From a phage, in sequence record PZ179883.1: DNA of 64,000 nt; one strand, 5' to 3'. Shown in pieces: positions 4,388 through 45,350 of the stretch. Below the pieces are notes generated by a model that ran no database searches, was not told the DNA's origin, and was given only the letters and a program-made list of their open reading frames with translations. The translations under genes were made by a program, and so were the position numbers. Within the stretch, counting starts at the first letter, position 1, and every line of letters starts with the position of its first letter.

Positions 4388-4639
4388 TCATTCCTTCTCT
4401 CTGATGATAATTACTTGATTTGGCTGTGCAGACTTTTTAGTTTCACCAGCAATTGACCAAATAAATGTAATAAACCAACCAATGATTGACCAGTTAAACA
4501 GTAAAGATGTAAAAAAGATTCCTACTGTCGATTTTGACCCACGCATCAAGGCAATGAACCAAGGAAGCATGTATATAATAATAGCCAACACACCTGAAAC
4601 TAAAACCATAAAAATTGAACCTGCTACTAAAGTTTCCAT
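4388..4639 (-). CDS. imm: Imm superinfection immunity membrane protein
   Basis: 83 aa with two hydrophobic helices; between 42 and 43 as in T4. Confidence 0.7.
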   Translation of the reverse strand: METLVAGSIFMVLVSGVLAIIIYMLPWFIALMRGSKSTVGIFFTSLLFNWSIIGWFITFIWSIAGETKKSAQPNQVIIIREKE

Positions 4640-8210: not shown

Positions 8211-8228
8211 AAGGGGCCGAAGCCCCTT
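8211..8228 (-). terminator. C(UUCG)G tetraloop hairpin between regA and 43
   Basis: Minus-strand RNA GGGGC-UUCG-GCCCC. Confidence 0.6.
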
Positions 8229-10157: not shown

Positions 10158-10175
10158 AAAGGGCCGAAGCCCTTT
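10158..10175 (-). terminator. C(UUCG)G tetraloop hairpin between 45 and 44
   Basis: aaagggccgaagcccttt; RNA GGGC-UUCG-GCCC. Confidence 0.6.
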
Positions 10176-14868: not shown

Positions 14869-14887
14869 AAAGGGCCGAAGCCCTTTA
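14869..14887 (-). terminator. C(UUCG)G tetraloop hairpin at the 3-prime end of a-gt
   Basis: Same aaagggccgaagcccttt unit. Confidence 0.6.
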
Positions 14888-18507: not shown

Positions 18508-18524
18508 AAAGGGCCGAAGCCCTT
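18508..18524 (-). terminator. C(UUCG)G tetraloop hairpin
   Basis: aaagggccgaagccctt. Confidence 0.55.
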
Positions 18525-18723
18525 AGCTAAACTTTTTGGCACCCTTCCAGCCTTCGTACATCATTGCGACTGACAATGACAAAGCTCCTTCACATGCTGC
18601 ATACTTATTATTCCAGAACCAATTTAGAAAAACTTCATCCTCAATACCATTGTGTTTCATGTTCTGGAAAAATTTGGCGCGTTCTTCAGCAATTCGCTGC
18701 GATAATTTAGATTCAGGATTCAT
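18523..18723 (-). CDS. Hypothetical protein
   Basis: 66 aa ORF downstream of a UUCG hairpin. Confidence 0.35.
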   Translation of the reverse strand: MNPESKLSQRIAEERAKFFQNMKHNGIEDEVFLNWFWNNKYAACEGALSLSVAMMYEGWKGAKKFS

Positions 18724-31926: not shown

Positions 31927-32940
31927 TCATTTATAATAACTTCGGTGGTTTTCAAGATAAACCCTCTCAAGGAAGTCATCCCAAAAACCCATGTCTACTT
32001 TTTGCTGCATACCGTTCTTAGAAGCTTCAGTAGATGCTGCTTCTACTTGATCGACCACATCTTCCAAAAACTCTTGAACCGTTTTAAATGGATGTTTACC
32101 CAACTTCACGTCGAGAATAAATGGAGCATCTTGGAGTGGATAAACCAAGTCACCAGTTTTGTAAATTTCCAATAGTTGAAGTCCACCACGACAAGCATGG
32201 CTCAGAGCTTTCCAGTCAATGCCTTCGTTGGCTTCGGCCTTACGAGCACGTTCACCGTATTCAGCATCTAATTTGTTCAGTGACTGCTTAAGCTCAATAA
32301 GAGAAAGAGTTGTCTGATATTTACGACCCAACACAGTGTAGAACGTTTGTGGGCCTGTTTTCTCATGATTATGGAACACCCATTCACAGAATTCGTTTTC
32401 TGGAAGACGATGCTTAATATCTTCAACTTTAGTACGACGCTGCTTAATGGAACCGTCTTCTTGGTAATCAACCCATTGCTCAGGGATTTGATTAACTACT
32501 TTCAATACATCACGTAATGCTGCCAAACGAGAACCCTTGACACCGTATTTAGAAGCTTGCTTACGGACATATCCTAAATATGATTTCATGTTAGTCGTAT
32601 AAAAACGAGAACGGTTGTCTTGAATAAACTTCCACACATCAGGCAAATCAGATTTAACCACTAACTCAGGTGGAGTGTGAAGCATATCTAACGCTACAGT
32701 TTCACCATCTGCTGCTAATTTAAAGAAATATTTAAGACTATACAATTCGTGGTCAATATCATCTTTAGTGTTTTTAGATGATGTGTTGTTAGTGTTTTTA
32801 CTCATATGCTCTTTAACATTTCCGATAAGAATATCACGAGCAGGAGGAACAAAGATTTCTTTAAAATCTACATCAGATTCTGGGGTAGAAGTTCCATAAA
32901 GATGACTACCAAAATAGCTTTTCATTACTGTTTTCATCAT
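31927..32940 (-). CDS. Pol-beta superfamily nucleotidyltransferase with helical C-terminal domain
   Basis: N-terminal GSHLYGTSTPESDVDFK fits the GS-x(9-13)-D-x-D nucleotidyltransferase motif; 337 aa; start overlaps upstream membrane-protein stop by 4 nt. Confidence 0.6.
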   Translation of the reverse strand: MMKTVMKSYFGSHLYGTSTPESDVDFKEIFVPPARDILIGNVKEHMSKNTNNTSSKNTKDDIDHELYSLKYFFKLAADGETVALDMLHTPPELVVKSDLPDVWKFIQDNRSRFYTTNMKSYLGYVRKQASKYGVKGSRLAALRDVLKVVNQIPEQWVDYQEDGSIKQRRTKVEDIKHRLPENEFCEWVFHNHEKTGPQTFYTVLGRKYQTTLSLIELKQSLNKLDAEYGERARKAEANEGIDWKALSHACRGGLQLLEIYKTGDLVYPLQDAPFILDVKLGKHPFKTVQEFLEDVVDQVEAASTEASKNGMQQKVDMGFWDDFLERVYLENHRSYYK

Positions 32941-33398
32941 TCAGCCTTATATTCAATAACAGGACATACTTTAGCTTTACGAGCTTTTAAAAATTCAACG
33001 ATAATCGATTTCTTGGGTTGAATAGGAGGTAAACCTTTATACGCCCTATCAATATTTTCTACGTGTAAAGCATAATCCTTTTTCCATTTATAATCTTTAT
33101 ATTTTTCACGCAGTTGTGCAGGAATAACAAATGAACCGATAATAAGTAAAACAAGCAAAATGGCAAGTATAAATGCTGATGGAATAAGAGTCCATAAACT
33201 ACCAAAAATAAGCCATTTCTGTATGATTTCTGCGCAGATGATAGTTAGACCTACGAGTATAGTACATCCGAAAAAAGAAACGAAAAATGTAGGGATAACA
33301 ATAGACCAAAAGTATGCGCACAGCGTCTTAGGTCGTTGCCATTCATCGTTAAACAATTTGAATAATTTATAGTGCCAAGAGTTTTCATTAATAATCAT
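32937..33398 (-). CDS. Polytopic membrane protein (3-4 transmembrane helices)
   Basis: 153 aa; long hydrophobic stretches; basic C-terminal tail. Confidence 0.5.
   Translation of the reverse strand: MIINENSWHYKLFKLFNDEWQRPKTLCAYFWSIVIPTFFVSFFGCTILVGLTIICAEIIQKWLIFGSLWTLIPSAFILAILLVLLIIGSFVIPAQLREKYKDYKWKKDYALHVENIDRAYKGLPPIQPKKSIIVEFLKARKAKVCPVIEYKAE

Positions 33399-42270: not shown

Positions 42271-42272
<2 letters not shown>
42236..42272 (-). promoter_or_regulatory. Early promoter upstream of denV
   Basis: TTTACT N18 TACTAT; its position supports the denV start at MTRINL. Confidence 0.5.
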
Positions 42273-43073
<801 letters not shown>

Positions 43074-43529
43074 TTAAAAGAGGCTGTTCATTATTCGGTA
43101 AAGTGAAGGGCCCATCACATATTGCCACTGAGTACGAGGAATAAGGGCAAAAGCATCCATCTCTGGAATCATAACACCATCTTTATTTTCAAAATAAGAC
43201 TCGCAATGGCAATTTCTAAACATCTCATGCTCTACTGGAATCGTATAATAAAATAACTGTAAGTCTTTATTACTAGAATATTTAAATACACCTAGGTCTT
43301 CTAGAAGGTCTGGATTATAATTGCTAAAACCAGTCTCTTCTAAACATTCTCTTCGTGCTGCATCTAGTGCGTTTAAATCAGAATTTTCTACACGGCCTTT
43401 TGGAATATCCCAGCGATGTGCCATCATTCCAGGCTTACGAGAACCAGTAACCCGTCCCATGAATAAATCTTTATCTTCTGTCATAAAGATAATACCAGCT
43501 GATAATGTTTTCATTTTAATTTCCTGCAT
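43074..43529 (-). CDS. nudE: Nudix hydrolase NudE
   Basis: 151 aa; Nudix box GRVENSDLNALDAARRECLEETG; position after e. Confidence 0.85.
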   Translation of the reverse strand: MQEIKMKTLSAGIIFMTEDKDLFMGRVTGSRKPGMMAHRWDIPKGRVENSDLNALDAARRECLEETGFSNYNPDLLEDLGVFKYSSNKDLQLFYYTIPVEHEMFRNCHCESYFENKDGVMIPEMDAFALIPRTQWQYVMGPSLYRIMNSLF

Positions 43530-43999
43530 TCAATGATAAAGTTATTTAAATTTTGAGTATATTTCTTTTCATCAAAAATCTTTTGTTGTCTGCGTAGCCG
43601 CCATGGCATTTCGATGAACACACACCATATTCCTGATAGTATTGCTGCTGTCAAAATATTAACAAGTATGATTAAAAGAATCCAATCTCCCGTTCTGCCT
43701 ACTGGACTTTCTCCAAAGAAGCAAAATACAAATGATGTCACAGGAAAACTAATAATGTACCACAGAATCATAATTTTATCTGTGAACCAATCAGCGTTCG
43801 TTAATTTAGCGCGACCATTATGAATACATACGAATTTATCATCTGTTGCAGTAGATGGCTTAACTGGTTGATATCCCATTCTAAACTCCCTAATCAGCAA
43901 ATTTTTCATATCTTCGGAACAGCCATTCCAGTCAACTCTATCAACTGGAATGCCATCATCCCCATCATCTAAATCATACCAGCGAGTTTTTAAAATCAT
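43511..43999 (-). CDS. Membrane protein, member of a 3-gene tandem family
   Basis: 162 aa; transmembrane segments; C-terminus FIIECRKLK. Confidence 0.4.
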   Translation of the reverse strand: MILKTRWYDLDDGDDGIPVDRVDWNGCSEDMKNLLIREFRMGYQPVKPSTATDDKFVCIHNGRAKLTNADWFTDKIMILWYIISFPVTSFVFCFFGESPVGRTGDWILLIILVNILTAAILSGIWCVFIEMPWRLRRQQKIFDEKKYTQNLNNFIIECRKLK

Positions 44000-44358
44000 C
44001 TGATTTTCCTACAATCACTCACAAACTCTTTCATTGATTCATTTTCAATATAAGACATGTAGCTATTATATTCTTTTAATTGTATTTTGTAATCCTTTTT
44101 TCTTTGCCAATTTATTTTAAAATTATCATAATGAAAATATAGAATGATACAAAAGAATGAAAATAATGAAATAATTTTAGTATAGCGAAGTTCACTCCAA
44201 ACTTCTATTATATTTACTGTGCCATCGATGTTTAAAATAAGACAGTCAATTAACAATCCAAAAAGACTACCCGCAAGAGCTGCAGCCAACGCCACAGCAA
44301 AAATTAAAAATGACTCAGGAAGCGAATATTTGACTTTATTTAGTTTTGGCTTTTGCAT
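43996..44358 (-). CDS. Membrane protein, tandem family member
   Basis: 120 aa; C-terminus EFVSDCRKIR. Confidence 0.4.
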   Translation of the reverse strand: MQKPKLNKVKYSLPESFLIFAVALAAALAGSLFGLLIDCLILNIDGTVNIIEVWSELRYTKIISLFSFFCIILYFHYDNFKINWQRKKDYKIQLKEYNSYMSYIENESMKEFVSDCRKIR

Positions 44359-44753
44359 CGTGATTCCTTAACAAATTTCATAATTTCATCAAATTCATAC
44401 GCAGCAAGTTTAAGCTGATATTCCTTTTTAATCTTTTTACACTGTGCTTTCCAATCACGTACACGTTTACGATAATGTCTTCCTTGATACCAGTATCCTA
44501 CCCAATTTACAGGTACTAATAAAAGTGGAACTATTAATGGAAGAATTAGCATTAACACAAGTATTTCGCCAGAATCAATATCAGTCATAACATCTAAAAC
44601 ACCTCCAATAATCAATAGAATTACAAATGATATGAGTATAACAGGACCTATTAACACATCAGTAGAAATTATCTGACGCTTTGGTTCATACTTCACAGGT
44701 TTACTTGGAAGGTATAGTGATGGTTTTGACATATTCTCTACATTCCTTAACAA
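44340..44753 (-). CDS. Membrane protein, tandem family member
   Basis: 137 aa; C-terminus MKFVKESRCKSQN. Confidence 0.4.
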   Translation of the reverse strand: MLRNVENMSKPSLYLPSKPVKYEPKRQIISTDVLIGPVILISFVILLIIGGVLDVMTDIDSGEILVLMLILPLIVPLLLVPVNWVGYWYQGRHYRKRVRDWKAQCKKIKKEYQLKLAAYEFDEIMKFVKESRCKSQN

Positions 44754-45309
44754 ATTTTTCTAGTAATAAATCACTTTCAAAATTGGGATTTTCTACAAAT
44801 TTATCAAAAAGATCATCAACAATAGTTAAGATATTCTTTTTACTAAGAATACGTTTATTTTCATGCTTCGTTTCAGAATCAACTATAAGAGTAAAGAAAT
44901 ATTTCTTGCCCTGAAATTTTACAGTAGTATCAATATAAAATAAATTTGACTTTTGTAAATTACGTTTAAACCATGCGTCACTTAAACTATAAATGCCAAG
45001 ATAATCATAATCGTCGTTTAAATAACAAACTGTCCATTCAGGAGAAATGAAATCAGTAAATTCAACATCAAAATCACATGTCAATGAATGAATTGATTCA
45101 ATACTGTTAATAAGTATTCCAGGACGTATTAAGGACTTTTTACCTCTATAAAATCTTCCAGAAAGACTTTCGTCAGTTTCATACGAAGACCCCCAATAGT
45201 AATTACGCCCTTCTGCCATACGTTTAAGAGCATTTAGTAATTGGTCTGGAACATCAACATGTCTTTGGAACTCTTCAAACATTGAATTGAAATCATTTTG
45301 CATTCTCAT
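44701..45309 (-). CDS. Hypothetical protein
   Basis: 202 aa ORF. Confidence 0.4.
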   Translation of the reverse strand: MRMQNDFNSMFEEFQRHVDVPDQLLNALKRMAEGRNYYWGSSYETDESLSGRFYRGKKSLIRPGILINSIESIHSLTCDFDVEFTDFISPEWTVCYLNDDYDYLGIYSLSDAWFKRNLQKSNLFYIDTTVKFQGKKYFFTLIVDSETKHENKRILSKKNILTIVDDLFDKFVENPNFESDLLLEKFVKECREYVKTITIPSK

Positions 45310-45328
45310 TCCTATTTACTCCAAGTAT

Positions 45329-45346
45329 AAGGGGCCGAAGCCCCTT
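45329..45346 (-). terminator. C(UUCG)G tetraloop hairpin
   Basis: aaggggccgaagcccctt. Confidence 0.55.
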
Positions 45347-45350
45347 ATCA

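Follow-up and report, generated by a model that had tools for sequence, protein, structure and literature searches.

The locus and its genes

The window analyzed here is a stretch of 64,000 nucleotides of phage DNA (sequence record PZ179883.1). Between positions 43511 and 44753 it contains three consecutive small genes that the original prediction, a reading of the letters without database searches, had described as tandem paralogs encoding membrane proteins. By its DNA sequence, the window is a Tequatrovirus (T4-like) genome, and the 2.4 kb around the three genes has 93–97% DNA identity with over 500 Tequatrovirus records and with T4. The gene order, denV, ipII, e, nudE, e.2, e.3, e.4, e.5, and e.6, is colinear with that of T4; therefore, the three open reading frames (ORFs) are T4 e.2, e.3, and e.4. 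ORFs of 162, 120, and 137 amino acid residues (aa) were found on the minus strand exactly where they had been placed. For the third, e.4, the ORF stands and the length of 137 aa does not, as it depends on an unlikely TTG start at 44753; T4 and related records annotate an ATG at 44732, giving 130 aa. The plus-strand ORFs within the interval are all short (48–71 aa).

All the genes that follow are on the minus strand. The e.4 gene (44340–44732; 130 aa from the ATG) matches PHROG 2604 (E = 3e-70 over residues 1–130) and belongs to PF26873 (Phage_T4_Y06O), which its close relatives all carry. The e.3 gene (43996–44358; 120 aa) matches PHROG 2330 (E = 1e-59), and its product is 78–93% identical to the e.3 proteins of T-even phages. 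The e.2 gene (43511–43999; 162 aa) matches PHROG 2203 (E = 1e-77 over residues 1–160, the N-domain included); it has a precomputed assignment to PF26896, which its relatives carry as well, and relatives at 30–44% identity occur in Dhakavirus and phage LQ5. The three genes lie in an overlapping block, of which the first gene is e.5 (44701–45309), encoding a soluble protein of 202 aa (PF26876, Phage_T4_Y06P), and the last is nudE (43074–43514), encoding a Nudix hydrolase. The nudE ATG at 43514 overlaps the e.2 stop codon as ATGA, and there is an alternative ATG at 43529. The three genes had been placed downstream of nudE; they read toward lower coordinates, so they are transcriptionally upstream (5′) of it. 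A scan of the region against Rfam gave no match, and a scan for tandem repeats found trivial 8-nt arrays only.

The genes are already known T4 ORFs and stand in Pfam and PHROGs as separate, uncharacterized families. Their T4 orthologs (the UniProt Y06x_BPT4 series) are 80–97% identical, follow one another in the order seen here, with e.5 and nudE as flanking genes, and bear the annotation 'conserved hypothetical, predicted membrane protein'. The e.2 of reference T4 is a frameshifted form of 102 aa, whereas that of the window is intact at 162 aa. Neither the link among the three families nor their common junction motif is recorded in the databases consulted. Modest new detail is added here: the three families are linked, e.5 joins them through a common C-terminal helix, and a junction-repeat route to copy-number change is described.

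Predicted membrane architecture

Multiple hydrophobic helices had been predicted for each protein, and hydropathy gives two in each of e.2, e.3, and e.4. The e.4 protein has an N-tail (MSKPSL..VKY), a first transmembrane helix (TM1, ~26–48), a loop, a second helix (TM2, ~57–79), and a long basic tail ending MKFVKESRCKSQN. In e.3, the N-tail (MQKPKL..VKY) is followed by TM1 (~17–42), a loop, TM2 (~61–77), and a basic tail ending MKEFVSDCRKIR. The e.2 protein, with TM1 at ~76–96, a short loop, TM2 at ~106–129, and a basic tail ending NLNNFIIECRKLK, is distinguished by an extra N-domain of 75 residues (1–75) that is predicted to be cytoplasmic. All three have acidic loops and tails rich in lysine and arginine; in e.4, the N-tail has a net charge of +3, the loop of −3, and the C-tail of +9. 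Because of these basic tails and acidic loops, the positive-inside rule predicts for e.2, e.3, and e.4 a two-helix hairpin with both termini in the cytoplasm. The three proteins share the features of a superfamily that we propose, namely, the predicted hairpin, the basic, predicted cytoplasmic tail, and a C-terminal [LI]xxF[IV]KECR.

An AlphaFold model of e.4, with a predicted local distance difference test (pLDDT) score of 68, contains helices at residues 24–49, 54–108, and 111–127; that of e.2 (pLDDT 50) is too poor for use. With the e.4 model as query, Foldseek retrieved from BFVD its own family only, sequence searches of the PDB with e.5, e.2, and e.6 returned nothing, and scans against Pfam, NCBIfam, and PADLOC yielded no meaningful match and none to a defense model. 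The idea that e.6 is PspA-like, which would make the block resemble a psp operon, was rejected: there was no PDB match, and hhalign against a PspA sequence gave a Prob of 0.3%, no better than that of shuffles.

Paralogy of e.2, e.3, and e.4

Among e.2, e.3, e.4, and e.5, single-sequence BLASTP linked only e.3 and e.4, at E = 0.024, and hhalign with Tequatrovirus-only alignments gave a Prob below 10% with profiles that are too shallow (effective number of sequences, Neff, ~1.2). Distant members were added by tblastn from Mosigvirus, Gaprivervirus, Jiaodavirus, Dhakavirus, and phage LQ5. Mosigvirus and Gaprivervirus were found to have e.5, e.4, and e.3, with an extra two-helix copy ending NLENFIKECRGK in Mosigvirus; Jiaodavirus has e.4 and an e.5-position protein. 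With the multi-genus profiles, hhalign matched e.3 to e.4 at a Prob of 95–96.5%, with E from 2e-8 to 8e-10 and, in global mode, 112 aligned columns; it matched the C-terminal module of e.2 to e.3 at 85–91% over the tail, and e.2 to e.4 at 3–27%. To calibrate the scores, the columns of the alignments were shuffled segment by segment (N-tail, TM1, loop, TM2, and C-tail). The e.3–e.4 score of 51.2 compares with 18.6 ± 4.5 for the shuffles (maximum 29.7), and the score of 39.6 for the e.2 tail and e.3 compares with 13.4 ± 3.0 (maximum 23.6). Five other small membrane proteins of the window served as controls and gave a Prob of at most 12.6%; one is an 83-aa strongly hydrophobic protein at 4388–4639 (minus strand) that, by size and position only, we take to be Imm and used as a negative control. 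The PHROG model of e.4 matches e.3 over its full length (E = 0.0087), and e.3 and e.4 have in common the N-terminus M-x-K-P-x-L...VKY.

By these profile comparisons, e.3 and e.4 are homologous, and the membrane-plus-tail module of e.2 is related to e.3 at least in its tail. Thus the claim of tandem paralogs stands for e.3 and e.4 over their full length and for the e.2 tail with e.3; the direct e.2–e.4 link appears only marginal. An absence of shared motifs beyond hydrophobicity had been named as the outcome that would tell against the claim, and the e.3–e.4 and e.2-tail scores instead exceed those of the shuffles. A merged MAFFT alignment of e.2, e.3, and e.4 misaligned the tails and was left unused. 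In a search of 1.84 billion representatives, the e.4 profile found six matches only, namely, the e.4 cluster representative, e.4 fragments and chimeric variants, and one Gaprivervirus-type homolog; the family barely extends outside T-even phages.

A further candidate paralog, a 153-aa two-helix protein (32937–33398, minus strand), was rejected since the profile comparison was not significant. Its tail, KYKDYKWKKDY...IIVEFLKARKAK, also described as KKDY...EFLKARK, resembles that of e.3 superficially.

Tandem paralogs occur a second time in this region in other genera. After e.3 in Mosigvirus mogra (L007 3731–4525) and Gaprivervirus SP18 (L009 3691–4959), there are three to five tandem small soluble proteins, all ending W-V-S-S-S-x-x-C and then stop. 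This family, absent from the window, is a second regional example of tandem paralogs with a conserved extreme C-terminus.

The C-terminal motif

Translated in all six frames, the 64 kb contains the pattern F[IVL].[ED][CS]R six times, against a chance expectation that we roughly estimate at below one per window. Four of the six occurrences sit 3–11 residues before the stops of the consecutive genes e.5, e.4, e.3, and e.2, and a relaxed form of the motif selects the same four genes among 194 ORFs. The tail endings of e.2, e.3, and e.4 follow F-[IV]-x-[ED]-[CS]-R, so the related C-terminal motif claimed for the three proteins is confirmed; the soluble e.5, overlooked earlier, has the same motif as LLLEKFVKECREY, 11 codons before its stop. 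Seventeen instances from five genera give the consensus [LI]-x-x-F-[IV]-K-E-C-R, with F in 17/17, C in 13/17, and R in 16/17. The helical hydrophobic moment is above the shuffle mean in 15 of the 17, few being significant individually. Across paralogs and genera, F, C, and R are retained via differing codons (TTT/TTC, TGT/TGC, and AGA/AGG/CGA), and because of this retention through codon changes the motif is under protein-level selection; an RNA-level constraint acts too.

Other soluble proteins end with the motif: at L010 4657–4965 (Jiaodavirus Merci), L009 5211–5540, and L012 304–654, with ends such as MFIAKCRAK and LFLEYCRS.... It follows that the motif is not confined to membrane paralogs and that alone it is no proof of whole-protein paralogy. 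One might go further and suppose that [LI]-x-x-F-[IV]-K-E-C-R acts as a transferable short linear motif at the C-terminus, tagging otherwise unrelated small early proteins of the e–tRNA hyperplastic region, the set comprising e.2, e.3, e.4, Mosigvirus gp147, the soluble e.5, and the other soluble Jiaodavirus and Gaprivervirus proteins. We consider this reading quite unlikely to be right. If it were, the tag would direct these proteins to one common partner or one membrane-anchored complex, and, because the motif codons double as the ribosome-binding site of the next gene, 'tag plus coupling signal' could travel as one piece in recombination, so that new genes would arrive already tagged and translated.

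Within the e.4 tail (residues 88–130; 44340–44500), there is a second, internal motif-like segment, RVRDWKAQCKKIKK, which alignment programs pair with the C-terminal NNFIIECRKLK of e.2. This suggests that the tail helix of e.4 is internally duplicated. In addition, four genes of the window with minus-strand starts at 42552, 47102, 47701, and 51292, ipII-like and other variable internal proteins, begin with the capsid-targeting MK[TS]Y.[EQ]F[IL].E of internal proteins. Its core, EF[IL]xE, resembles the C-terminal EF[IV]xE of the e.2–e.5 motif, which may be coincidence.

Gene overlaps and junction repeats

Each gene of the block overlaps the next: e.5/e.4 by 32 nt, e.4/e.3 by 19 nt, and both e.3/e.2 and e.2/nudE by 4 nt (ATGA). 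A purine-rich, Shine–Dalgarno-like stretch for each downstream start sits within the upstream motif codons, and these codons always carry or adjoin the Shine–Dalgarno or ATG of the next gene (AAGGAA, TGYAGGAAA). The e.5-e.4-e.3-e.2-nudE block is probably translationally coupled. Since the motif codons double as the translation signals of the next gene, every gene boundary is a short direct repeat.

The four junctions, J1 to J4, are organized as follows. At J1 (e.5/e.4), the FVKECR codons of e.5 are at 44737–44754, within a region containing the exact 16-nt repeat AAATTTGTTAAGGAAT (44742–44757). The second copy of the repeat, at 44363–44378, is at J2 (e.4/e.3), where the FVKESR codons of e.4 are at 44358–44375 and the R-C codons of e.4 contain the ATG of e.3. 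J3 (e.3/e.2) has the FVSDCR codons of e.3 at 44008–44025, with TGTAGGAAA as the Shine–Dalgarno-like sequence for e.2; J4 (e.2/nudE) has the FIIECR codons of e.2 at 43523–43540, with TGCAGGAAA as that for nudE. The J1–J2 and J3–J4 similarities are in the top 0.6% of ~4,000 gene-junction pairs in the window. There is no hairpin or strong promoter at J1–J4.

At the upstream edge of the e.5–nudE block, between e.6 and e.5, there is a GC-rich CUUCGG hairpin (45327–45348, minus strand), for which Rfam gave no match. It is one of five GC-rich CUUCGG-loop hairpin copies (AAGGGGCTTCGGCCCCTT and variants) in the window, with zero expected by chance, and as such takes up 45329–45346; the others are at 8211–8228, 10158–10175, 14869–14886, and 18508–18525, also on the minus strand. 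The copies resemble the stable UUCG hairpins known from intercistronic regions of T4.

Recombination products and copy number

In the genome at L005, e.2 is precisely deleted. The new junction matches J3 on its left and J4 on its right, with the crossover in TG(C/T)AGGAAA; that is, J4 is the crossover partner of J3 in genomes without e.2. This e.2-less haplotype is common in nature (L005 3875–4674; L013–L018 1501–2300): e.3 ends CRKLK and overlaps nudE directly. The e.3 ending CRKLK is found in P0001, the representative of a cluster of 163 sequences, and e.3 adjoins nudE at all six of the genomic places examined that encode P0001. By counts of tblastn matches at 60% identity or above, ~50 of ~500 Tequatrovirus records lack e.2.

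A second kind of product is found in phages UFV05 and UFV11, in which a single in-frame chimera replaces e.4, e.3, and e.2. The first 31 residues of e.4 are joined to e.2 from TM1 on, the crossover being in a common TCCTG at the equivalent P-V of TM1. The chimera has 106 aa (L008 3001–3321, in the complete genome of vB_EcoM-UFV11; protein P0143). A natural e.4 variant of metagenomic origin, P0194 (69 aa), has lost both membrane helices in frame, so that the N-tail is joined to the C-tail. In T4 (NC_000866 67472–67960; L001 3473–3961), e.2 differs from the window's 43511–43999 by a −1 and a +1 indel with a stop between them, and the 102-aa product is without TM2 and tail. The same form is present in other phages (P0192, P0193); therefore, the 102-aa e.2 is a real allele, probably of a decaying gene.

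From the deletion, the chimera, and these variants, it follows that the type ranges from one to at least three copies. A comparison of copy number among T-even phages had been proposed with the original prediction. As read from the sequences of these products, the junction repeats are recombination sites. An IMG/VR scan found only four loci; in one IMG/VR genome (L005 2917–3532), e.5 is split into ORFs of 145 and 93 aa, by a frameshift or an assembly error.

The junctions could be taken to mean that e.2, e.3, and e.4 are not paralogs at all, and that three unrelated small membrane proteins carry the motif as a by-product of a repeated junction nucleotide cassette selected for coupling or shuffling. 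The constant overlap or adjacency of motif and next Shine–Dalgarno or ATG, the exact 16-nt repeat at J1/J2, and the occurrence of recombination at the junctions fit such a cassette, as do the placing of an AGG arginine codon, a rare codon in T4, where AGGA forms and the presence of the motif at the ends of soluble, unrelated-looking proteins. However, the e.3–e.4 profile match spans helices and tails well beyond the overlaps and is far above shuffles. The motif residues are kept through codon changes, including a CGA arginine that destroys AGGA, and in e.5 the motif is 11 codons before the stop. Moreover, whole tails of 33–51 residues, and not the junction codons alone, have ratios of nonsynonymous to synonymous change (dN/dS) of 0.08–0.18. 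On balance, we strongly doubt that the three proteins are unrelated.

Selection on the tail and the hairpin

Outside the overlaps, the tail dN/dS is 0.18 for e.4, 0.13 for e.3, and 0.08 for e.2, and the e.5 motif has zero nonsynonymous change at a synonymous difference (pS) of 0.09. As estimated from these alignments, the tails are under strong purifying selection. The hairpin of e.4 is almost neutral (dN/dS 0.72–0.85), and the loop of e.2 has a dN/dS of 1.86, over 9 codons only. Entropy profiles agree, with conserved tails and a variable hairpin. The diversification noted originally is supported, and in Tequatrovirus the variation concentrates in the membrane hairpin and loop.

This variation is what would be expected if the proteins took part in envelope conflict, acting as Imm-like early inner-membrane proteins that block entry of superinfecting DNA or counter a membrane-based host defense, with TM1, loop, and TM2 as an arms-race surface. 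Like Imm, they are small, two-helix, early membrane proteins; their copy number varies among phages, as is typical of accessory conflict genes, and they are non-essential in the laboratory. Yet dN/dS exceeds 1 in no segment of meaningful length, and relaxed constraint on an anchor fits the hairpin values equally well. The predicted periplasmic loops have only ~8–18 residues, the most constrained parts are the cytoplasmic tails, there is no homology to Imm (Prob at most 1.2%), and no defense model matches. We therefore think an envelope-conflict role unlikely. As to superinfection exclusion, suggested in the original prediction, our analysis neither supports nor contradicts it, the likeness to Imm being architectural only.

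Expression and the lysis genes

In T4, the mRNAs of e.2–e.5 are in the early class according to one study, which at the protein level lists e.4 and e.5 as early, e.2 as middle, and e.3 as late, with all four detected (PMC9697503). CRISPRi-ART knockdown of e.2–e.6 had no fitness effect (PMC11879866). The sole late-promoter consensus sites in the region are a pair, TATAAATA, at 43051–58 and 43064–71 (minus strand), between nudE and e; none is upstream of e.2–e.4. Therefore, e has late promoters of its own. The e.2–e.4 genes are in a tightly overlapping block with nudE and not with e. There is no lysis cassette at this locus in T4-type phages. Searches of the literature by gene name found no functional study of e.2–e.4, the mentions being in supplement tables only.

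These data bear on the suggestion that adjacency to lysis genes implies a role in lysis timing, in which e.2–e.4 would be regulators of the holin or antiholin type, working alongside lysozyme e. The genes are indeed within 1 kb of e, and the predicted architecture resembles that of class II holins. When T4 lyses its host is already accounted for by t, rI, and rIII, which lie in other parts of the genome. Because of the early mRNA class, the lack of a knockdown effect, and e's own late promoters, the suggestion is unsupported; in addition, nudE separates the genes from e, and many viable phages, T4 included, have lost e.2 or have it frameshifted. We give lysis timing hardly any credence.

On the other side of e, ipII adjoins e directly (42271–43037); ipIII, which is between them in T4, is absent from the window.

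A proposal for the e.2–e.5 array

We propose that e.2, e.3, and e.4 are diverged tandem paralogs of one small inner-membrane protein specific to T-even phages, whose tail docks a common partner, a reading that we believe and doubt in about equal measure. The proteins are synthesized early from the overlapping e.5-e.4-e.3-e.2-nudE block, in which the motif codons also supply a ribosome-binding site or a start codon to the gene that follows. Recombination between junction repeats, or between equivalent points of TM1, expands, contracts, and hybridizes the array. The hairpin would be mainly a membrane anchor tolerant of change, and the conserved, basic, amphipathic tail would be the working part, most likely docking a common cytoplasmic partner at the inner membrane; candidates for the partner are a host factor and soluble e.5, which carries the helix as well. 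Their function is presumably accessory and can be dispensed with in the laboratory.

Several points weigh against this proposal. Single-sequence comparisons are not significant; the direct e.2–e.4 comparison is marginal (25.7, against shuffles of 15.8 ± 3.5 with a maximum of 25.0), and the link to e.2 depends on ~20–35 tail columns. The motif also ends the soluble, apparently unrelated e.5, a 102-aa Jiaodavirus protein, and a 109-aa Gaprivervirus protein, and it may have spread within a junction cassette. The dN/dS values come from 5–12 closely related sequences and short segments, and confidence in the structure models is low to moderate (pLDDT 50 and 68).

The proposal offers a handle on three of the many uncharacterized early genes of T4, and current views are not overturned by it. 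The e.2–e.4 genes are best treated as one family, together with e.5; since they may be redundant, e.2–e.5 should be considered, and deleted, together. A search for the partner is better aimed at the conserved cytoplasmic tail than at the hairpin. In addition, the locus illustrates, cleanly and on a small scale, how junctions of overlapping genes serve as recombination sites that change copy number while reading frames, and probably translational coupling, are kept.

Comparison with known systems

Imm provides a superinfection immunity function. Like e.2–e.4, it is a small, accessory, early phage protein with two membrane helices. It lacks the long basic tail of e.2–e.4 and does not end in their F-[IV]-K-E-C-R, and e.2–e.4 are not known to have an exclusion phenotype. 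Comparison of the window's putative Imm with the e.2, e.3, and e.4 profiles by hhalign gave a Prob of 0.1–1.2%, which does not indicate homology.

In class II holins, such as S of phage 21, a pair of membrane helices leaves both termini in the cytoplasm, and the C-terminal tail is charged. By prediction from hydropathy and the positive-inside rule, e.2–e.4 match this architecture. Unlike these holins, they are of the early class, have no late promoter, and at 120–162 aa are larger; they are dispensable in, or absent from, viable phages. Class II holins are expressed late from a lysis cassette beside the endolysin; e.2–e.4 do not lie in a lysis cassette and do not have that pattern.

The closest parallel to the junctions would be PeSLs, intergenic units of a promoter plus a stem-loop that mediate modular shuffling in the hyperplastic regions of T4-type phages (PMC2839356, PMC4122927). 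A PeSL boundary carries an early σ70-type promoter and a stem-loop, and neither was found at J1–J4. In contrast to PeSLs, the repeats of the e locus are coding, the C-terminal motif being overlapped with the Shine–Dalgarno and start of the next gene, with no promoter and no hairpin, and the recombinants keep their reading frames and probably their coupling. What the two have in common is that non-essential genes are bounded by short conserved sequences at which recombination inserts, deletes, or swaps genes between related phages, and the crossover in a boundary repeat that is characteristic of PeSLs is found here as well: the e.2 deletion has its crossover inside the core shared by J3 and J4.

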